A DNA stretch of 64,000 nucleotides, from positions 2,048,001 to 2,112,000 of the forward strand of contig CM075995.1 in assembly GCA_038087875.1 (NCBI GenBank), in the 5' to 3' direction. The notes beneath the pieces were generated by a model. The model had not been told where the DNA came from. It worked only from the letters and a program-made list of their open reading frames with translations, and searched no databases. Source of the DNA: Malacoraja senta. Taxonomy: Eukaryota. Position 1 is the stretch's first letter; each line of letters begins with the position of its first letter. This document shows, piece after piece, positions 12,991 through 59,415 of this stretch. A program made the translations under genes and the position numbers.

Positions 12991-14155
12991 ACATAGAAAC
13001 ATAGAAAATAGGTGCAGGAGGAGGCTATTCAGCCCTTCGAGCCAGCACCGCCATTCATTGTGATCATGGCTGATCGTCCCCTATCAATAACCCATGCCTA
13101 CCTTCTCCCCATATCCCTTGACTCCACTAGCCCCTAGAGCTCTATCTAACTCTCTCTTAAATCCATCCAGTGATTTGGCCTCCACTGCCCACTGAGGCAG
13201 AGAATTCCATAAATTCACAACTCTCTGGGTGAAAAAGTTTTTTCTCACCTCAGTCTTAAATGAGTCCCCTTTATTCTAAGACTGTGGCCCCTGGTTCTGG
13301 ACTCGCCCAACATTGGGAACATTTTTCCTTCATCTAGCTTGTCCAGTCCTTTTATAATTGTATATGTTTCTATAAGATCCCCCCTCATCCTTCTAAACTC
13401 CAGTGAATACAAGCCTAGTCTTTTCAATCTTTCCTCATATGACAGTCCCGCCATCCCAGGGATCAATCTCGGGAACCTACGCTGCACTGCCTCAATCACA
13501 AGGATGTCCTTCCTCAAATTAGGAGACCAAAACTGTACACAATACTCCAGATGTGGTCTCACCAGAGCCCTATACAACTGCAGAAGAACCTCTTTACTCC
13601 TATACTGAAATCCTCTTGTTATGAAGGCCAACATTCCATTAGCTTTCTTCACTGCCTGCTGTACCTGCACGCCAACTTTCAGTGACCGGTGTACAAGGAC
13701 ACCCAGGCCTCGCTGTACCTCTCCCTTACCTAACCTAACCCCATTGAGATAATAATCTGCCCCCTTGTTTTTGCCGCCAAACTGGATAACCTCACATTTA
13801 TCTATATTATACTGCATCTGCCATGCATCTGCCCACTCACTCAACCTGTCCAGGTCACCCTGCAACCTCCTAATATCCTCTTCACAGTTCACACTGCCAC
13901 CCAGCTTTGTGTCATCCGCAAACCTGCTAGTGTTGCTCCTAATATATGGTAAACAGTTGCGGCCCCAACACTGAGCCTTGCGGCACTCCACTCGCCACTT
14001 CCTGCCATCCTGAAAAGGACCCGTTCACTCCTACTCTTTGCTTCCGGTCTGCCAACCAATTTTCTATCCATGTGAACACCCTACCCCCAATACCATGTGC
14101 TCTAATTTTAGTCACCAGTCTCCCGTGCGGGACCTTATCAAAGGCTTTCTGAAAG
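12991..14155 (-). mobile_element. CR1/HER1 LINE, RT to 3' UTR, 5' truncated
   Basis: 248 aa ORF: FADDTKLGG..LQGDLDRL..LYRALVRPHLEYCVQFWSP..RRMRGDLIETY; FQKAFDKVPH at 5' edge; (TTCTATGT)n tail. Confidence 0.95.
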
Positions 14156-16429: not shown

Positions 16430-17190
16430 TATAACATTCTTAAGGGATTGGGCAGGTTGGATGCAGGAAAAATGGTCCCGATGTTGAGGGAGTCCAGAAC
16501 CAGGGGTCACAGTTTAAGAATAAGGGGTAGTCCATTTAGGACTGAGATGGGAAAAGCTTTTTCACACAGAGAGTTGTGAATCTGTGGAATTCTCTGCCAC
16601 AAAAGGCAATATACAATAGACAATAGGTGCAGGAGAAGGCCATTCGGCCCTTCGAGCCAGCACCGCCATTCAATGTGATCATGGCTGATCATCCCCAATC
16701 AGTACCCCGTTCCTGCCTTCTCCCCATATCCCCTGACTCCGCTATTTTTAAGAGCCCTATCTAGCTCTCTCTTGAAAGCATCCAGAGAACCTGCCTTCAC
16801 CGCCCTCTGAGGCAGAGAATTCCACAGACTCACCACTCTCTGTGAGAAAAAGTGTTTCCTCGTCTCCGTTCTAAATGGCTTACTCCTTATTCTTAAACTG
16901 TAGCCCCTGGTTCTGGACTCCCCCAACATCGGGAACATGTTTCCTGCCACTAGCGTGTCCAAACCCTTAACAATCTTATATGTTTCAAGGCAGTGGAGGT
17001 CAATTCACTGGATGTTTTCAAGAGAGAGTTGGATATAGCTCTAGGGCTAATGGAATCAAGGGATATATGGGGAGAAAGCAGGAACGGGGTACAGATTTTG
17101 GATGATCAGCCATGATCATATTGAATGGTGGTGCTGGCTCGAAGGGCCGAATGGCCTATTCCTGCACCTATTTTCTATGTTTCTATGTTT
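16430..17190 (+). mobile_element. CR1 3' end containing an antisense CR1 insertion (16609-16986)
   Basis: AAGGCA duplicated at 16603-16608 and 16987-16992; inner ORF FFSQRVVSLWNSLPQRAV. Confidence 0.9.
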
Positions 17191-36249: not shown

Positions 36250-36625
36250 AGTCATAAAGTCATCGAATTTTACAGTGTGGAAACAGGCCCTTCAGCCCAA
36301 CTTGCCCACAACGGCCAAAATGTTCCAGCAACACTAGTCCCATCTACCAGTCCATATCCCTAAAAAACTGTCCTATCCATGTACCTGTCTAACAGCTTCT
36401 TAAATATTCGGTTAGCCCCTGCCTCAACTACCTCCTGTGGCAGCTTGTTCCATACATCCACCACCCTTTGAGTGAAAAAGTTACCCCTCAGCTTCCTATT
36501 AAATCTTTTCTCCATCACCTTAAACCTATGTCTTCTGGTCCTCGATTCACCTACTCTGGGCAAGAGACTCTGTGCATCTACACGATCTATTCCTCTCATG
36601 ATCTATACACCTCTATAAGATCACA
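36250..36625 (-). mobile_element. CR1 3' end
   Basis: MRGIDRVDAQSLLPRVGESRTR.HRFKV..FFTQRVV. Confidence 0.9.
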
Positions 36626-36837
36626 CTTATTTACACTTGTACACTTATCCTTTATACAGACGCCGTCCAAGATTAGGACTATTCCCGTGTCGCTGGGTGC
36701 TGCCCTACTTATTCACAGGATGTGGGTATCAATGGCATTTATTAAATCTATTGCCTCAAGTTCACTCCACCCAACCCCAATCCAGATTATCATCCCCTCT
36801 CTATGCTGACTCTGCAAAGAAACTCTGAGTGACAAAC

Positions 36838-37215
36838 AACAGCTCGGCATTCAATACCATCATCCCCTCCACGCTGGTTACCAAGCTCATGGAACTGGGT
36901 CTCTGCAAATCCATGTGCAATGGGATCTTCGACTTCCTCATCCACAGACCACAGTCTGTTTGAATTGGCAGAAACACTTCTTCCTCATTTTCAAACAGTA
37001 CGGGAGCACCTTAAGTAGAGCCCCCTGCTCTACTCACTCTATACTCATGACTGTGTAGCCGGACACAATGTGTACTCCATCTTCAAGATCGCCGACGACA
37101 CCACCTGTGTTGCACGAATCCCAGATGGGGATGAGTCAGAGTATAGAAGCGAGATCGACCGATTGACCAAATGGTGTCAGCACAACAACCTGGCTCTCAA
37201 TATCAGTAAAACCAA
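36838..37215 (+). mobile_element. Rex1/Babar-like RT fragment
   Basis: [46 protein letters not shown]. Confidence 0.82.
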
Positions 37216-37430
37216 TGAGCAGCATCTCTGGAGAACACGGATAGGTGACGTTTTGAGTTGTGACCCAAGGTGACGATTCGGGTCGGGAGCCTTCTTCAGT
37301 ATGAAGAATCGCTCTGACCCGAAACATCACCAATCCATGTTCTCCAGAGATGCTACCAGACCAGCTGAGTTACTCCAACATTTTTTGGTGTGTTTATATT
37401 TGTAAACCAGCATCTGCACTTCCTTGTATC
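37216..37430. mobile_element. Palindromic Penelope-derived repeat
   Basis: GCAGCATCTCTGGAGAA.. / ..TTCTCCAGAGATGCT with hammerhead-like remnants. Confidence 0.75.
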
Positions 37431-37997
37431 CTCAGTTCACACTTCATCAGTTGATCTGGATCCTATTGTAACTTTGGACAAAATACTTCAATGTCCATTA
37501 AACCACAAATTTACTGCAGACTAATAAACCACAATATATATATATACATATATGTAACAGAGGATCCAACACTTAATCTTCTTTCTGCTGCAACACATTC
37601 AACATAGAATCACTTCACAAATAATTGATCTGCATTCTCAAATTAATAATCTTATATTTTTGCCCAGAGCTGTCCTTGGAGTTTGGCAAGAATCGAGAAA
37701 TAGCTACGACAAATGAACTAACCATGGTCACACAAAGCACATTCTTCCAAACCACAAATATAAATACAGTTATCTCTAAAATAAATGGGAAAGCACAAAA
37801 TATTTTCAGGTGAAAGTGCAAAAAATTGCATTTAGATGGCACTTTTCATTCCCCAAATCGCTATATAGCCTGTGATGCAAAATGTGAAATATGATTAAAG
37901 AATAAGGAGTAAGCCATTTAGAACAGAGACGAGGAAACACTTTTTCTCACAGAGAGTGATGAGTCTGTGGAATTCTCTGCCTCAGAGGGCGGTGGAG

Positions 37998-38784
37998 GCA
38001 GGTTCTCTGGATGCTTTCAAGAGAGAGCTAGATAGGGTTCTTAAAAATAACGGAGTCAGGGGATATGGGGAGAAGGCAGGAACGGGGTACTGATTGGGGA
38101 TGATCAGCCATGATCACATTGATTGGCGGTGCTGGTCGAAGGGCCGAATGGCCTACTTCTGCACCTATTGTCTATTGTCTATTGATTGCTGCAATTTGGA
38201 TTCAGGAATCTCCCACAAACAACAATGCTAATTGAGGATAGACACAAAATGCTGGAGTAACTCAGCGGGACAGGCAGCATCTCTGGAGAGGGTGACGTTT
38301 TCAGTCTGAAGAAAGGTCTTGACCCGAAACGTCACCCATTCCTTCTCTCCAGAGATGCTGCCTGTCCCACTAAGTTACTCCAGCATTTTGTGTCCATCTT
38401 CGGTTCAAACCAGCATCTGCAGTTCTTTCCTACACAATGCTAGTAGAGGGATATATACTGTAGTGGCCAAGACATTTGGGGCAACTTCCCTGCTCACCAC
38501 TGAATTAATGCCATGAAATCTTCTTTAACATTCACTTGAGAAAGCAAGTTAACACAAGACGCACTTCCAACATTGCACTGGCATGTCACCACAAAGTTCA
38601 GCATTTACATCCCTGGAGCGGCTCTGCAACTTTCCGACCCTGAGCTAAGCGTGCCACCAGCTGTGTTACAACTGGTCATAGACACAAAAAGCTGGAGTAA
38701 CTCAGCTCAACTCATGCAGAGACAGCATCTCTGGAGAAAAGGAATAGATGACATCTCGGATCAAGAGAGTCAAGTTTTATTGTC
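37998..38784 (+). repeat. Direct duplication, copy 1 (787 bp)
   Basis: Matches 41847-42632 with about 20 differences by manual count. Confidence 0.95.
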
Positions 38785-41700
38785 TTTCTTTTAAAATCTT
38801 TTAATTCGTTTTTTTTTCAAAAACAAAAACAAAACAAAAAAAAGAATAATGATAAACATAACAATGATATTGATACATAGGGATCAGGCTTACATTAATA
38901 ACAGATATAACCTAAATATGAGTCCAGTATCAAAATACACATTGAATATAGACCTCCCGGTATCTATGTATAGTTAAATGTTTAATAGAAAAATTATATA
39001 TAAAAAAAACAAAAAGAGAAAAAGAAAAAAAAAGAAAAAAAAGAGAAAAAAGGAAAAAACAAAACCCCCCTAAACTAGAAAAAAAAAGCAAAACAGAATC
39101 TGGGCTACAAAGAATTTCAACAATTTAAGTCCCTGTTTGTCGTCAAGTCCGTTCCACCGTATAAAGGTAAAAGAATTATTATAACGGTTGGAGAGGGGAC
39201 AATTTATGTTGTGTGAAAATGTTGAAAGAATCTTCCCCAAGTCCTATCAAATTTAACCAAGGGTTCAACAATGTCACTCCTGATTTTTTCTAAATATAAA
39301 CATGATATCGTTTCAAAGTACCAATGGAGTGTGGTCAGAGGGTTAGAGTCTTTCCATTTAAATAAAATAGATCTTCTGGCAATTAATGTGGTAAAAGCAA
39401 TCAGCCGATGGGCGGAACGGGACAAATGAATAGAATCTAACATTGGTAGCCCAAAAATTGCAGTAATAGGATGAGGTTGTAAATCAATACCTAAAACTAC
39501 AGAAATAGTATCAAAGATTTCTTTCCAATATTTTTCCAAAAGTGGGCAGGACCAAAACAGTGAGGCCACTTCAGAGTTACATCTGTCACAGGTAGGATTT
39601 ATATGACCATAAAAACGAGCTAACTTATCTTTTGACATATGAACTCTGTGAACCATCTTGAATTGTATCAAAGCGTGTCTTGCACACATTGAGGAAGTAC
39701 TAACTAATTGAAGAATCCTCTCCCATTTCTCTATAGAGAAATTTGGAGTTCACTTTCCCACTCATTCTTAATTTTATCAAATGTATCTATTTGTAATTTC
39801 AAAATCAACTCATAAATAGTCATTATTAAGCCTTTCTGATAAAGGTTCAAATGTAAAAATATTTTCCAAGATTTCAGTTTGATGTGGTAACGGAAAAAAG
39901 GGTAGAGTAGCCTTCAAAAAATGTCTAATTTGTAAATATCTAAAAAAAAGTGTGAGTTAGGTAAATTATATTTATTGGAGAGTTGTTCAAAAAACATAAA
40001 AAACAAATCACGAAAAGCTACTAATCCCTTCCTCTTCCATAACAGAAAGGCTTGATCAGTACCAGAAGGATGGAAGAAAAAAAATTAGATATGATAGGAC
40101 TCGATAAGATAAAATCATTCAATCCAAAAAACTTACGAAATTGAAACCATATTCGGAATGTATGTCTTATTATTGGATTAGTCGTATATTTATTCAATCT
40201 CGTAATTGTAAAAGGTAACGAGGCCCCTCGAATAGAAGCCAATGATAGCCCTTGCATAGAATCATGTTCAAGATTTATCCATCCTGGGCATTGGGTATCT
40301 TCTAAATCTTTTGTCCAAAACATTAAATAACGAGCATTAACTGCCCAATAGTAGAATCTAAGGTTCGGCAGTGCCAAACAACCGTCTTTTTTTGATTTCT
40401 GTAAGTATTTATTATTTAGTCTGGAATTTGTATTCTGCCATATATATGAAGACATTTTGGAGTCAATAATATCAAAGAAAGATTTAGCAATAAAAATTGA
40501 AATCGTCTGAAATAAAAACAAAAATTTAGGTAAGATAAACATTTTAATAGCATTGATTCGGCCGATTAAAGATAAGGACATTGGTGACCATTTAGTAAAC
40601 TGTTGTTTGATATGGTCAATTAGAGGCGTAAAATTAGCCTTAAATAAATCCTTGTGTTTCTTGGTAATCTTAATATCTAAATAAGTAAAACATTCGGTAG
40701 TCAATCTAAATGGAAACTGTCCATAATTCGAAACTAGATTGTTTAATGGAAAAAGCTCAATCTTACTAAGATTTAGTTTATAACCAGAAAAACTACTAAA
40801 TTGATTAAGTAGTGCTACTATTGCCGGAATAAATTTCTCAGGATTAGAAATGAATAATAACAGATCATCTGCATAAAGAGATAGCTTATGTGTCTTATTC
40901 CCGCGGACAATACCAAAAATATTAGGGGATTCCCTAATAGCGGTGGCCAAAGATTCCAAAGCGATATCAAACAGTAAAGGACTTAAAGGACAGCCCTGTC
41001 TAGTACCTCGAAAGAGCCTGAAAAAAGGAGATCTCTGATTATTGGTAAGTACGGAAGCCTGAGGTAGATGATATATCAGCTTGATCCAAGAAATAAATTT
41101 TGGACCAATCTTAAATTTTTCAAGTGTATTGAATAAGTATTCCCATTCTACTCTATCAAACGCCTTCTCGGCATCAAGTGAAATTACACATTCTGGAGTT
41201 TTATTTGACGCTGTATATACGATATTCATTAATCTCCTAACGTTAAAGTATGAGTAACGATTTTAATAAAACCTGTCTGATCTTCAGAAATAATTTGTGG
41301 TAAAATATTTTCCAATCTCATAGCTAATATTTTGGAAAGAATTTTGGAATCTACATTTAACAGTGATATACGTCTATATGATGTCACTTCAGTAGGGTCT
41401 TTATCTTTTTTAAGAATTAAAGAAATAGATGCTTCATAAAAGGATTGTGGTAATCTATTCATTAAAAAGGCTTCTTTAAAAACCTTGCATAGCCAGGGAG
41501 ACAGTAAACTTGAGAAATACTTTAAAAATTCCACTGTAAACCCATCTAAACGGGGAGCTTTACCAGAATTCATCGAGAGGATTGCTTTCTGTATTTCTTC
41601 CTCCGTGATGGGTTTGTCTAACAACAGAGACTCATTATATAATAAATTTGGCAAGTTCAGTTTCTTTAAAAACTCATACATTATATTGGAATCAGTAAGA

Positions 41701-41846
41701 AATTCTGATTGGTATAGGGAGGTATAAAATTCCTGAAAGGATTTATTAATTTCATCATGGTCTACAATCAGTGTACCATCCCGTTTACTCACTTTAGTAA
41801 TCTGCCGTTTGGCCGACACTGCTTTCAACTGATTATCAAGTAATTA
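38785..41846 (-). mobile_element. 5'-truncated L1-clade LINE (frameshifted ORF2: RT and C-terminal Cys motif)
   Basis: ISLDAEKAFDRVEW, GTRQGCPLSPLLF, LYADD, CDRC..FWSC; T-rich 3' UTR and A-rich tail at the 38785 end. Confidence 0.95.
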
Positions 41847-42632
41847 GCAGGTTCTCTGGATGCTTTCAAGAGAGAGCTAGATAGGGTTCCTAAAAATAGC
41901 GGAGTCAGGGGATATGGGGAGAAGGCAGGAACGGGGTACTGATTGGGGATGATCAGCCATGATCACATTGAATGGCGGTGCTGGTCGAAGGGCCGAATGG
42001 CCTACTCCTGCACCTATTGTCTATTGTCTATTGATTGCTGCAATTTGGATACAGGAATCTCCCAAAAACAACAATGCTAATTGAGGATAGACACAAAATG
42101 CTGGAGTAACTCAGCGGGACAGGCAGCATCTCTGGAGAGGGTGACGTTTTCAGTCTGAAGAAGGGCCTTGACCCGAAACATCACCTATTCCTTCTCTCCA
42201 GAGATGCTGCCTGTCCCACTGAGTTATTCCAGCATTTTGTGTCCATCTTCGGTTCAAACCAGCATCTGCAGTTCTTTCCTACACAATGCTAGTAGAGGGA
42301 TATATACTGTAGTGGCCAAGACATTTGGGGCAACTTCCCTGCTCACCACTGAATTAATGCCATGAAATCTTCTTTAACATTCACTTGAGAAAGCAAGTTA
42401 ACACAAGACGCACTTCCAACATTGCACTGGCATGTCACCACGAAGTTAAGCATTTACATCCCTGGAGCGGCACTGCAACTTTCCGACCCTGAGCTAAGCG
42501 TGCCACCAGCTGTGTTGCAACTGGTCATAGACACAAAAACTGGAGTAAGTCAGCTCAACACAACCAGAGACAGCATCTCTGGAGAAAAGGAATAGATGAC
42601 ATCTCGGATCAAGAGAGTCAAGTTTTATTGTC
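41847..42632 (+). repeat. Direct duplication, copy 2 (786 bp)
   Basis: See copy 1. Confidence 0.95.
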
Positions 42633-43543
42633 ATATGTCCCAGATAGAACAATTAAATTCTTACTTGCTGCAGCACAACAGAATCTGTAAACAGAACGTC
42701 GAGACCCTACTTCAGACTGTGAGTCAGGGGAAAGGGATACGAGAGAAATAGACAGTTTTATAGGGAGATATAGAACAAATGAGTGAAAGATATGTAAAAA
42801 AAGTAACAGTTATAAAGGAAACAACTGGTTTCATGAACGGGTGCCAAGGGTTATGGGGAGAATGCAGGAAAATGGCATTAGGAGGCAGTGATCAGCCATG
42901 ATTGAATGGCGGAGTAGACTGGATGGGCCGAATGGCCTAACAACTAATGTGGTTCTTCAATTCTGCCCAATAAATTGCTCTTTGCATTCAGTTCAGTCGG
43001 GTGGTATTATCATAAACTAAAGTTGATGGATAGTGGCAGATTTCTGGAAGAGATTCAACATTTTGATAATAAACCAGCAATCTGGTAAGCACTAAGTCCC
43101 AAGTATACATAAGATTTGTGTGATTACCTCCACAACAAATCTGTCAACCACCAGGTAGCTATGAAAACAATATGGCAAATAAATATGTTCAAAGCCAAAT
43201 TCAACTTCTCCTGGCATATGTTGCCCCAGCAAACATATTTACTATACAGTAGACACAAAATGTTGGAGTAACTCAGTCGGGACAGGCAGTATCTCTGGAG
43301 AGAAGGAATGGGTAATGTTTTGGGTGGGTGGGTTACTACTACAGGCAGATGGACTGTATGTGCATACACACATATATATGTTGTGCTTCAGGAAACATGC
43401 AGCATGTTTTTTTTCCAATGCACCCAGCACCTTTCATTTAATCTGTGCCTTCAATGTAGTAAAATATCCAATTTGTAGGCACTTAGCAGGAACAAAGTTG
43501 ACGCCATATCCAAGGTTCAAATCACCCAGAAAATGCTTTCCAG

Positions 43544-44057
43544 AGTGGCACAGTGGCGCAGCTGGTACAGCTGCTGCCTTTCTGCGCTATAGACCCGGGT
43601 TCGATCCAGACTACGGGTGCGGTCCGTACGGAGTTTGTACGTTCTCCCCATGACCTGGCGTGAGTTTGCAACGGGATCTCCAGTTTTCTCCCACACTCCA
43701 AATACGTACAGGTCATTAGGTTAATTGGCTTGGTATAATTGTAAATTGCCGCATGTCTGTGTGGGATAGCAATACTGTGTGGGGATCGCTGGTCGGCGCT
43801 GACTTGGTGCGCCAAAGGACCTGTTTCCACGCTGTATCTTTAAACTAAAAACAAAAGACTGAACTGGTTTCCTCCGGGTGTTCCGGTTTCCTCCCATATA
43901 CCAAAGACGTGTGTGCTTGTAGATTAATTGCCCCTCGTGTGTGGGGAGTGGATAAGAAAGTGAGATAACCTAGAACAGGTGTGCTCCGGTGATCGATGTC
44001 AGCATGGACTCAATGGGCCAAAGGGTCTGCTTCCATGCTGTATATCTAAACTAAACT
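43544..44057 (+). mobile_element. Two adjacent HE1-like SINEs (43544-43850; 43866-44057 truncated)
   Basis: B box GGTTCGATCC, V-domain, two (CTAAA) tails. Confidence 0.85.
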
Positions 44058-44094
44058 TTCCACCTACAACCCTCCCTCTGCTTTTACATTTCAC

Positions 44095-44430
44095 AATGGG
44101 GAGATGCATGAGAATTTCTGCTTCACCTGTAGGGCTGTTTGGGTCCCTGGATGAGGGTGGAGGTGTAGGGACAAGTGTTGCACCTCCTGAGAAGAGGGAA
44201 GGATGGGTGGGCAGGGACGAGCGAACCAGGGAATCACAGAGAGAGTTGTCCTTGTGGAAAGCAGGAAAGGGTGGAGATGGGACGATGTGACAGGCGGTGG
44301 GACTATGCTGCAGATGCTGGAAGTGTTGAAGAATGATGTGCTGGACGTGAAGAATGGAAGTGCGAAAGGTGAAGACCAGGGGGACTCTAACTGGGGGCAA
44401 GACCGAGGGAGAGCAGATATGTCAGAAATG
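44095..44430 (-). mobile_element. Old Penelope-like ORF fragment
   Basis: RVPLVFTF..QHIILQHFQHLQ..PPFPAFHKDNSLCDSLVRS. Confidence 0.7.
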
Positions 44431-44943
44431 GAGATTGTGGGAAATGTGGGTCCCATATCTGAGGAAGGCTCTGGAGAGGGTCCAGAGGAGGTTTACAGGA
44501 ATGATTCCAGGAATTTTGCAGATGACACAAAGCTGGGTGGCTATGAGAATGCAGGGTGACTTGGACAGGTTGGGTGAGTGGGCAGATGCATGCAGATGCA
44601 GTTTAATGTGGATACATGTGAGGTTATCCACTTTGGTAGCAAAAACAAGAAGGCAGATTATTATCTAAATGGTGTCAAGTTGGAAAAAGGGGAAGTATAA
44701 TGGGATCGGGGTGGTCCTTATTCGTCAGTCAATGAAAGTAAGCATGCAGGTACAGCAGGCAGTAAAGAAAGCGAATGGCATGTTGGCCTTCATAACTAGA
44801 AGAGTTGAGTATAGGAGCAAAGAGGTCCTTCTGCAGTTGTACATGGCCCTAGTGAGACCACACCTGAAGTATTGTGTGCAGTTTTGGTCCCGTAATTTGA
44901 GGAAGGACATTCTTGCTATTGAGGGAGTGGTTTACAAGATTAA

Positions 44944-45680
44944 GGGACTGTCCCATTGCGGCGACCTTTCAGCGACTGTCTTTGACCTTCAAGCTCGAGG
45001 GCACTCGCCTGAAAAACCTCGAGCTGGGTCGATGGTCAGCGATGAAACCACAAGCTGGATCGACCGACCATACACACACACACAAACACATCGTAAAGGC
45101 AGGGGCCAGGGAAAGCGGGGGAGCGCTGTCTGAAATTCACACCCGCGATGAAAAGAAAGATAAAAGACGGCTGCGCAGTGTACGGTAAGTCCTTTAGAGA
45201 GCGCGGGTGGGGGGGAGAGAAGGGGAAAGAGGGGGAAAGAAGGGAAGAGAAGGGGAGAGAAGGGGGGGGGAGAAGTTGTGGAGACACATTTAAGGTCAGG
45301 CAACGTTTAATAAAGTTTAGCGGGCATTTAACCTACCGGTCAGTTTTCCTGTGTCCTGAAAACTCCAATGAGCCAATTAAAATGCCCGGTCAGCAAAGGA
45401 GATTGCCTGCGTCTGCCCTCGGCTGCCTGTAACTACATAGCAACCCCACTCCACTGCACTACGAGTTCAAAAGAACCATGCCGACCAATTTTTACTCGCG
45501 GAAAATTTTTCCACGACCTAGCTGAGGCCGCGAGTATTCAGGAACTTCCCTCGAGCATGAAGGAGAGTTCCAGTGACCTCATACGACCTCCTAGGACCAC
45601 ATGTCGACCATGCTGCGAGTTTGAGTCGAGGGCAAACTCGTCTAAACTCGCAGATTAGGTCGCTGCAGTGGGAAAGCCCC
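44944..45680. mobile_element. TTAA-flanked MITE related to 21757-22132
   Basis: TIR GGGACTGTCCCATTGCGGCGACCT / AGGTCGCTGCAGTGGGAAAGCCCC; TTAA at 44940-44943 and 45681-45684; shared 3' ~190 bp. Confidence 0.88.
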
Positions 45681-45713
45681 TTAAATTCCGGGGACTGTCA
45701 TATGCTGAGAGAA

Positions 45714-47203
45714 GACGCTGGGGGACTTTCACTTCCGAACTTTTTGTATTATTACTGGGCAGTGCATATTAAGAATATAATTTATTGGTTGGACAGTCCT
45801 ACCCAACAGACAGAATGGATATGAATGGAGAAAGAGGATTGTTCTCCTTGTAATATAGGAGCGATCCTCTTCTCCCCGATAAAACTGAACAACACAATAT
45901 ATAAGAATAACCCAATTATACATAATACAATAAGAATTTGGAAACAAATAAAATTAACTTTAAACTTAAGAAACCTATCATTGTTAACGCCAATAGTGAA
46001 TAATCCTTCATTTAAACCATCTCTTATTGATAAAACATATAACCAATGGGAAAGAATGGGAATAAAAAAGATCGGCGATATGTATGAAATGGGAAATCTG
46101 TTATCATTCCAACAATTACAATTAAAATTTAAGCTGAAAAATAACCAATATTTTAAATACCTTCAGATCTGCGACTTCATGAAGAAATACATACAAAGAC
46201 ATCAAACTATAATTTTAGACCCACTGGAAGAAGCAATGAATATTAAGGCTGACACAGAAATTAATATCATATTTATATAATAGTATTTTAAATATAGAAC
46301 TACCATCGACAGAGGCACTTAGAGAAGATTGGGAACGTGAATTAATGTTAAAAATCATAAAAGAAACATGGGAAACGTCTTTGATATATATACACAAATG
46401 TTCGATTAATGTAAGGCATAACTTAATTCAATTTAAAATTTTCCATAGATTATATTATTCAAAAACTAGACTGAATAAATTCTATCCAAATACTTCTCCC
46501 ATTTGTGATAAATGTTTATCTCAAAATGCCACTATAACACACTCTTTTGTTTCCTGCATAAAACTTTATAAATTCTGGAGCGATATCTTTGAAATATTTA
46601 CAAAATTATTCAAAATAAAAATGGAGCCTAACACTGAAATGATTATACTTGGAGTAACGGAAGACGGGAACAAATTGAACACATTTCAAAATTCATTTTT
46701 TAATTATGAGTTAATAACGGCAAAAAAACTTATACTTAAATTTTGGAAAAATACACCCATACCAACGCTTAAAATGTGGATTTCAAACATGTTGGACACC
46801 ACACATCTTGAAGATTCCTCCTAACAGATAAATCAGACCAATTCTTAACGAGTTGGTCTCCATTTATCGACTTCTTGGAAGCATATGGTGCAACAAAATC
46901 GTAGAAACCAACTGTTTCAGGACTGGGTGAAGGATAGTCAAGAATATAAATAACTATCTCCTATAATCTCCTACTATCTACTCTTTCTCACTCGTTTTTT
47001 TTCCACTTTCCCCCCTTTTCCTTTTCACACACCATACATCACATGTTTTTCTATTTTTTATTATCTATTCTCTCTTTCTCTCTTTTATTATTTAAAAAAA
47101 TAAGAAGCTGTACATAAAATGTAACCTGCCAATATATATTAGGCACCTTGGTGCCACATTACTGTACTTACTTCTAATAAAATAAAAATATTTAAAAAAA
47201 TAT
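45714..47203 (+). mobile_element. 5'-truncated L1-clade LINE with 14 bp TSD
   Basis: GGLSLPNFLYYYWA..CDKC..HSFVSC; AATAAA and A-rich tail; ATATGCTGAGAGAA at 45700-45713 and 47204-47217. Confidence 0.93.
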
Positions 47204-47566
47204 ATATGCTGAGAGAATGGAATGGCTGGGCTTGTATACTCTGGAATTTAGAAGGATGACAGGGCATCTTATTGAAACATATAAGATTATTAAGGGTTTG
47301 GACACGCTAGAGGCAGAAAACATGTTCCCTATGTTGGGGGAGTCCAGAACCAGGGGTTAAGAATAAGGGGTAGGCCATTTAGAACGGAGATGAGGAAACA
47401 CTTTTTCACACAGAGAGTTGTGAGTCTGTGGAATTCTCTGCCTCAGAGGACGGTTGAGGCCGGTTCTCTGGATACTTTCAAGAGAGAGTTAGATACGCTT
47501 TTAAAGATAGCGGAGTCAGTGAATATGGAGAGAAGGCAGGAACGGGGTACTGATTGGGGATGATCA

Positions 47567-48149
47567 AGAGTCAAGAGTCAAGAGAGTTTATTGTCATGTG
47601 TCCCAGATAGGACAATGAAATTCTTGCGTTGCTGCAGCACAACAGAATATTGTAGTCATAAATACAGATCAGATCTGTGTGTCCATATACCATAGAATAT
47701 ATATATATATGCACACATCAGTAAACAGATAAGTTGCAATAGGTTGTTATATAGTCTGATGGCCGTGGGGAAGAAGCTGGTCCTGAATCTGGATGTTGCA
47801 GATTTCAGGCTCCTGTACCTACTACCCGATGGCAGCGGAGAGAGGAGTGTGTGGCCAGGATGGTGTGGGTCCTTGATGATGTTGGCAGCCTTTTCGAGGC
47901 AGCGCCTGCGATAGATCCCCTCGGTGGTAGGGAGGTCAGAGCCGATGATGGACTGGGCAGTGGTCACAACTTTCTGCAGCATGCTCTCTACTGTGCACCT
48001 GAAGAAGTTCGAGAGAGTCCTCCTTGACATACCGACTCTCCGTAATCTTCTCAGGAAGTAGAGGCGCTGATGTGCGTTCTTTATGATTGCATCAGTGTTC
48101 TGGGACCAGGAGAGATCCTCGGAAATATGTACGCCCAGGAATTTGAAGT
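47567..48149 (-). mobile_element. Rex1/Babar-like LINE 3' end
   Basis: NFFRCTVES..HPGHTLLSPLPSGSRYRSL..RFRTSFFPTAIRL; (CTCTTGA)n tail; TCA at both junctions. Confidence 0.88.
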
Positions 48150-48509
48150 TCAGCCATGATCACATTGAATGGCGGTGCTGGCTCGAAGGGCCGAATGGCC
48201 CACTCCTGCACCTATTGTCTATTGAATGAGTGGGTTAGCATTGAAGGGTGCTCTTTTAGAAAGGAGGTGACGAGGAACTTCTTTAGTCAGAGGGTAGTTA
48301 ATCTGTGGAACTCACTGTCACATAGGGCTGTGGAGGCCAAATCAGCGGATATTTTTGAGGCAGAGATGGACAAATTCTTGATTAGAAACGGTGTCAAGGG
48401 TAATGGGGAGAAGGCAGGAAAATGGGATTAGCAGGCAGATATCAGAGAATAGCGGAGTGGACTCGGTGGGCCACATGGCCTAATTCTACTCCTATAACGT
48501 GAACTTGTG

Positions 48510-50229: not shown

Positions 50230-51078
50230 GGGCGTCACGGTGGCGCAGTGCTAATGTTGCTTTCTTACAGCACCAAAGACCCGGGTTTGATCCTGACTAC
50301 AGGTGCTGCCTGTATGGAGTCTGTACGTTCTCCCCGTGACCTGCGTGGGTTTTCTCTGGATGCTCCGGTTTCCTCCCACAGATTAACTACCCTCTGACTA
50401 AAGAAGTTCCTCCTCACCTCCTTTCCAAAAGAGCACCTTTTAATTCTGAGACAATAGACAATAGGTGCAGGAGTAGGCCATTCGGCCCTTCGAGCCAGCA
50501 CCACCATTCAATGTGATCATGGCTGATCATCCACAATCAGTACCCCGTTCCTGCCTTCTCCCCATATCCCTTGACTCCGCTATCTTTAAGAGCCCTATCT
50601 AGCTCTCTCTTGAAAGTATCCAGAAAACCGGCCTCCACTGCCCTCTGAGGCAGAGAATTCCACAGATTCTCAACTCTCTGTGAGAAAAAGTGTTTCCTCG
50701 TCTCCGTTCTAAATGGCTTACCCCTTATTCTTAAACTGTGGCCCCTGGTTCTGGACTCCCCCAACATCGGGAACATGTTTCCTGCCTCTAGCGTGTCCAA
50801 ACCCTTAACAATCTTATACGTTTCAATAAGATTCCCTCTCATCCTTCTAAACATCCAGAGTGTACAAGCCCAGCCGCTCCATTCTCTCAGCATATGACAG
50901 TCCCGCCATCCTGGGAATTAACCTTTTTTTTTTCTCTCTTCAGGTTTGTAGGCTAATTGGCTTGGTAAATTGTCCCTAGGGTTTGTAAGATACTGTTAGT
51001 GTGTGGGGGTCGTTGGTCAGCACGGACCCGGAGGGCCGAATGGCTTGTTTCCGCACTGTATCTCTAAGCTAAACTAAA
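50230..51078 (+). mobile_element. HE1-like SINE split by antisense CR1 fragments (~50379-50925)
   Basis: SINE head and V-domain 50230-50378, remainder 50941-51078; inner minus ORF RRMRGNLIETYK..WNSLPQRAVEA. Confidence 0.85.
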
Positions 51079-59215: not shown

Positions 59216-59415
59216 NNNNNNNNNNNNNNNNNNNNNNNNNNNNNNNNNNNNNNNNNNNNNNNNNNNNNNNNNNNNNNNNNNNNNNNNNNNNNNNNNNNNN
59301 NNNNNNNNNNNNNNNNNNNNNNNNNNNNNNNNNNNNNNNNNNNNNNNNNNNNNNNNNNNNNNNNNNNNNNNNNNNNNNNNNNNNNNNNNNNNNNNNNNNN
59401 NNNNNNNNNNNNNNN
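59216..59415. other. Assembly gap (200 N)
   Basis: Run of n. Confidence 1.

Follow-up and report, generated by a model that had tools for sequence, protein, structure and literature searches.

Canonical L1 insertions are flanked by target-site duplications (TSDs) of about 5-30 bp, and the question raised by the locus described here is how a truncated L1 came to lie between two direct repeats of 787 and 786 bp. The window (the whole 64-kb stretch of DNA that was analysed) consists of repeat-rich vertebrate DNA, in which the repeats appear to be of cartilaginous-fish type. The analysis deals in turn with the junctions, the element, the host repeats around it, the ages of the parts, and the events that could have produced the arrangement.

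Duplicated block and junctions

The features of the locus are as follows.

37998-38784, strand not applicable (.): copy 1 of the block, 787 bp, from self-comparison, with 5 private changes
41847-42632, strand not applicable (.): copy 2 of the block, 786 bp, from self-comparison, with 7 private changes, adjoining the truncated 5' end of the L1
38785-41846, minus strand: 5'-truncated L1-clade LINE, 3062 bp, with Pfam RVT_1 and a short A-rich tail at the copy 1 end
39204-41843, minus strand: remnant of ORF2, with at least 4 frameshifts and in-frame stops at 0 of the 762 codons counted

When the whole 64-kb window was compared with itself, the two copies were the longest near-identical pair, with 97.3% identity and 21 unlike alignment columns (11 transitions, 9 transversions, and one 1-base indel). 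The remaining pairs of at least 200 bp were 65-96% alike, and those inspected were interspersed repeats. Direct copies of local DNA adjoin both ends of the L1, with the duplication on the side downstream of the first nick. The L1 tail starts at 38785, which is the first base past copy 1. At the other end, protein homologues of the element align up to 41843 (the starting point of 8 among the 14 alignments that pass 41780), so that no more than the 3 bases next to copy 2 are unaccounted for at the 5' junction. The first-pass annotation had the repeats abutting the tail and the truncated 5' end of the L1 exactly, and its coordinates were confirmed with this leeway at the 5' junction. A search for matches of at least 5 bp between 38730-38840 and 41790-41900 found none at the position of a TSD; a hidden short TSD was rejected on this result, and the annotation's claim of a long flanking duplication stands. 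The two breakpoints show no in-register homology; within 50 bp of them, the best local match is a 9-mer that lies out of register. The duplication was therefore not seeded by recombination between host repeats, and homologous recombination between the breakpoints was rejected.

The L1 between the copies

The element carries ORF2 with a reverse transcriptase (RT) domain (Pfam RVT_1, E 8e-29) nearest to vertebrate L1-type proteins, and has 31-33% amino-acid identity to a second L1 at 45714, where a weak Pfam zf-RVT match falls below the cut-off. The clade name is a putative one, given on the basis of motifs. The truncation point lies just upstream of the RT domain and downstream of the positions of the N-terminal APE endonuclease and ORF1. 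The short A-rich tail, read in the L1 sense, lies directly at 38785. A protein search with a threshold of E<=1e-50 returned 719 homologues, of which the 120 listed had identities of 36-60% and those with names were fish RT proteins. No close relative was found in this search, the best identity being 60% for a partial match and about 50% at full length. Elsewhere in the window, 5 alignments of L1-type homologues match weakly at 13945-14151 on the minus strand, which is probably the RT of another LINE.

Host repeats around the insertion

The block and its flanks were resolved into the repeats that compose them, of which two extend beyond the block as follows.

37895-38184, plus strand: 3' end of a young CR1-type LINE, whole on the copy 1 side only, with its last ~187 bp inside the block
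42633-42752, strand not applicable (.): right flank, with the remainder of a LINE tail to about 42697 and then the interrupted SINE

Copy 1 contains the CR1-type end, SINE pieces, and the start of another LINE's tail, and about 240 bp of the block has no match elsewhere in the window. CR1 and Rex1-type are provisional labels, and the sole test result bearing on them is a Pfam ALKBH8_N match in the element at 47659-48159. To the left of copy 1 the CR1-type repeat runs on, and copy 2 begins mid-element. The interrupted SINE picks up again at 42698, beyond copy 2 on its right, and 42698-42752 matches other SINE copies; the end of the block lies in the LINE tail nested in this SINE, and both continue to the right of copy 2 only. 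Because the host repeats run beyond the block on the outer side of each copy and not on its L1 side, a coherent nested series is restored when the L1 and one copy are deleted. The first-pass annotation had described an uninterrupted CR1 upstream of copy 1, a Rex1-type tail that continues beyond copy 2 as at 47588, and a coherent allele once the L1 and one copy are taken out. The first description was borne out by 96.2% identity between 37895-38184 and 16607-16897 (93% to 50449-50735), the second by 88% identity of the tail to 47574-47648, the label being provisional, and the third by this internal reconstruction from the nested repeats. The layout of the host repeats is the geometry of a target-site duplication.

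Two other kinds of structure were considered. A 3' transduction was rejected because what is repeated is local DNA that runs into the flank on either side. An LTR element was rejected since the block is pieced together from other repeats that break off mid-element at both ends; its repeats are nested host repeats running into the flanks and not terminal repeats owned by the element.

Three further observations concern the repeats of the window. One CR1-type copy, at 44480-48230, has three interruptions: an inverted-repeat element, the L1 at 45714, and a minus-strand LINE (about 47567-48150) with the ALKBH8_N match. The first of these, nested at 44943-45681 in this CR1-type copy as the second L1 is, has imperfect terminal inverted repeats between TAA triplets and is presumably Harbinger-like. 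Two inverted pairs, 27516-28202/52897-53578 and 25245-25730/53753-54202 (490-710 bp, 75-78% identity, including G- or C-rich low complexity), probably represent one GC-rich repeat family.

Differences between the copies

Differences between the copies were polarised by eye, with further copies of these repeats from the window serving as outgroups, and a polarity was obtained for 12 of the 21, with 9 left unpolarised. The private changes fell on both copy 1 and copy 2 (5 and 7 of the 12 polarisable; symmetry p 0.77), although in 4 of the 12 cases the minority base also occurs in one outgroup copy, which makes the call soft. A further 2 changes are common to both copies relative to other CR1 copies. 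The ratio of transitions to transversions to indels was 11:9:1, compared with 38:26:5 in 4 control repeat pairs (Fisher p 0.61, computed with 10:10, the true 11:9 being nearer the control). Since private changes occur on both copies and their spectrum is ordinary, the differences reflect ageing or allelic difference and not read error.

The first-pass annotation had taken about 20 differences as an argument against an assembly artefact. The argument holds for read errors, but it does not reach the case of a haplotype with the L1 merged with one lacking it, which would also display the block twice, because private changes on both copies are also expected of two haplotypes. The frameshifts of the L1, too, could be consensus errors. 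However, an assembler jump needs an overlap, which is lacking at the L1-to-CR1 junction. It would also require the loss of the 5' end and the short TSD that belong to the L1, and the differences consist of 20 substitutions against 1 indel. The sole assembly gap in the window (59216-59415, 200 N) is 16.6 kb off, and a difference of 2.5% is high for two alleles of one vertebrate. On this balance, a merging of haplotypes was judged improbable. Of 22 sequencing runs returned by a search, 20 matched part of 36400-44400 (best share 0.61, with 19 at 0.32-0.40 and 2 at next to none), figures that speak neither for nor against the arrangement.

Age of the copies and age of the L1

The divergence of the copies corresponds to 1.27% per copy (95% 0.78-1.96). 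Because no close relative of the L1 was found, its age was estimated indirectly from stop codons and conserved columns. The absence of stops in 762 codons corresponds to a decay of less than 2.8%, and 8 of 70 near-invariant columns are changed in the L1, compared with 2-3.5% in the homologues. Two parts are excluded from the count of stops and columns, namely the frameshift-rich stretch 40078-39738 and the codon at the junction (a stop here, but K or R in most homologues); the decay count assumes a 1:1 ratio of transitions to transversions, and the C-terminal piece, with 14 homologues, too few for the purpose, stands outside the column test. Joint estimates of L1 decay, which vary with the baseline assumed, lay between 1.2 and 3.2%, with wide intervals that all overlap the per-copy range, and 11 of the 12 exceeded 1.27%. 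The L1 has at least 4 frameshifts in 2.6 kb, compared with 1 indel between the two copies. The age of the L1 and that of the copies appear compatible, with a lean to an older L1.

One part of the block departs from the rest in that 214 bp (38379-38592/42228-42441) are without any difference between the copies (P 0.025-0.058), with 2 CpG in the stretch. This may be due to chance, to low mutability, or to later gene conversion, whose effect would be to lower the apparent age of the copies. The stretch resembles an ancient SINE.

These ages bear on the order of events. If a 787-bp tandem duplication was the older, and the L1 later inserted bluntly at its junction or patched it, the L1 should be the younger part; the L1 is not younger than the copies, and the estimates lean the opposite way. 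Blunt LINE insertions do exist, forming a category in PMC2666801, but a base-exact hit on the junction without a TSD would be needed, and the breakpoints have no homology that could have seeded the earlier duplication. This order of events is accordingly given little credence.

The lean to an older L1 suits a different sequence of events, in which the L1 was inserted first, with an ordinary TSD, and a rearrangement between alleles followed while the insertion was polymorphic. Either a broken end inside the L1 became attached to position 37998 on the homologue lacking the insertion, or a crossover took place between two L1s of the same family that had inserted 787 bp apart on different alleles. 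By either route the original 5' end and short TSD are lost and the block is duplicated, which yields the same structure. Against this, two rare events would be needed at one spot within the polymorphic period, no second copy of the flanked L1's family was found within the 64 kb, and the age intervals overlap. A later rearrangement of this kind was considered unlikely.

Probable duplication during integration

The reading in which the block was duplicated while this L1 was being integrated, making it a giant target-site duplication, is the best available, and we would put its probability at roughly 75%. It agrees with the host-repeat geometry, with junctions that are clean and show no short TSD, with ageing on both sides, and with age ranges that overlap. 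The tail of the L1 is joined to the plus-strand end at 38784 and its truncated 5' end to the sequence equivalent to 37998, so that the 5' join lies 787 bp downstream of the tail join in the L1 sense; a join on this side results in a duplication. Under the model of PMC2666801, a minus-strand element primed at 38784 duplicates its target when the second cut falls 787 bp toward lower coordinates.

Target-primed reverse transcription would have started at a plus-strand nick at 38784 and stopped after about 3.06 kb. With no nearby second nick used, the end of the cDNA would have been joined at a distant nick in the other strand and the 787-bp stagger filled in; alternatively, the cDNA end could have been joined to the broken end of a sister chromatid. 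The distant-nick and sister-chromatid routes leave the same sequence and are indistinguishable here. The event would then have passed through the germline, with both copies and the L1 decaying since. The older-leaning decay of the L1, its excess of frameshifts, and a priming end of GTC count against duplication during integration. The mechanism put forward in the first-pass annotation, an integration that duplicated host DNA, is thus retained as the best reading on geometry, junctions, and ages, but the surprise that it implied was overstated, as long LINE duplications are documented.

A second L1 and the insertion site

Another L1 in the window served for comparison.

45714-47203, plus strand: comparison L1 of another family, with an exact 14-bp TSD (45700-45713/47204-47217)

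The 14 bp reported for this element by the first-pass annotation were found to be exact, at 45700 and 47204, and ordinary TSDs therefore occur in this genome. The GTC priming end of the flanked L1 has a T-run 6-9 bases upstream; the T-rich motif is mammalian (given for L1 insertion sites in PMC11702581) and may not be that of this family. The priming site of the L1 at 45714 is not canonical either. Both insertion points fall at the same break in TGTC/ATATG (the slash marks the break), at 42629-42637 and 45696-45704. On the plus strand of the window the 9-mer occurs at these two sites only, with two more occurrences on the minus strand, at 13436 and 50891. The break is shared by two L1s of unlike family and opposite orientation, for which the post hoc chance is about 1.5e-4 for random pairs. 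The L1s here may favour a defined insertion site.

Significance

What the locus adds is modestly new, namely an aged, inherited long L1 target duplication in a non-mammalian vertebrate, of an outcome type already known and rare. Long L1 target duplications were formerly ascribed in part to oddities of cultured cells, and an aged, inherited example indicates that such duplications can be transmitted through the germline and can last, even with 787 bp of direct homology between their copies. As with LTRs, the pair of copies also dates the insertion. The locus changes no model, being a single one in DNA full of repeats and with a block in which no gene was seen; its weight would increase if its L1 family duplicates targets often. 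It is a long shot that the case is not a one-off, and that this L1 lineage or the germline repair of the host regularly resolves truncated insertions by a distant second nick, as in Dualen, possibly with a defined site favoured. If so, many old L1s would lie between long, LTR-like copies that date each insertion and are missed by annotation with a capped TSD length.

Comparison with known long LINE target duplications

The literature search found no long L1 TSD from a fish genome; subscription papers were mostly outside its reach, and the supplements of PMC8219666 and bioRxiv 10.64898/2026.06.26.733778 may hold some. The latter, covering >600 vertebrates, gives L1 TSD length as short and lineage-typical, and bins long flanking homology apart.

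The nearest L1 cases come from cultured cells. For an engineered human L1, PMC5223499 reports TSDs >100 bp in at most 10% of HeLa events, and TSDs of 5 bp-5.3 kb (median 1495 bp) in NER-deficient cells, for which a distant second nick is proposed; such loci are expected to be short-lived owing to recombination between the copies. The present locus is alike in having an L1 flanked by directly repeated host DNA hundreds to thousands of bases long, and differs in being endogenous, inherited, 2.5% diverged, and non-mammalian. According to PMC2912911, long TSDs go with 5'-truncated L1s in HeLa cells; its genome-wide in-vivo survey was capped at 30 bp, and in-vivo cases were called for. The zebrafish L2-type LINE ZfL2-2 produced a 1228-bp TSD in 1 of 25 wild-type insertions in chicken DT40 cells (PMC2666801), a case that differs in its L2 clade and in being engineered and in cultured cells.

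Duplications in human samples share the definition used here, an element between two copies of a local region. PMC8219666 lists 6 L1-mediated duplications in long-read germline calls from 20 people, and PMC7058536 describes tumour L1-bridged tandem duplication, the case being one of 22.6 Mb, with a model of sister-chromatid bridging; the events in both differ in being recent polymorphic or somatic ones. Small tandem duplications at insertion sites were also obtained in an L1 expression model (PMC11702581), and for HERV-K there are cases of 111 and 250 bp (PMC5488345).

Natural, heritable LINE insertions with long flanking duplications are known from two further systems. The R9 LINE of rotifers has a flanking duplication of 126 bp, as cited in PMC9977147. 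The Dualen-4b LINE of Chlamydomonas (PMC9977147) makes duplications of median 900 bp, a size near the present 787 bp, in over half of its insertions, possibly by means of two endonucleases. In Dualen-4b the duplication is a family trait, whereas the present case is one L1-clade locus with the endonuclease part missing and a neighbouring L1 with 14 bp. On the features tested, the locus is a member of the known class of LINE-mediated long target duplications and not a canonical L1 insertion.
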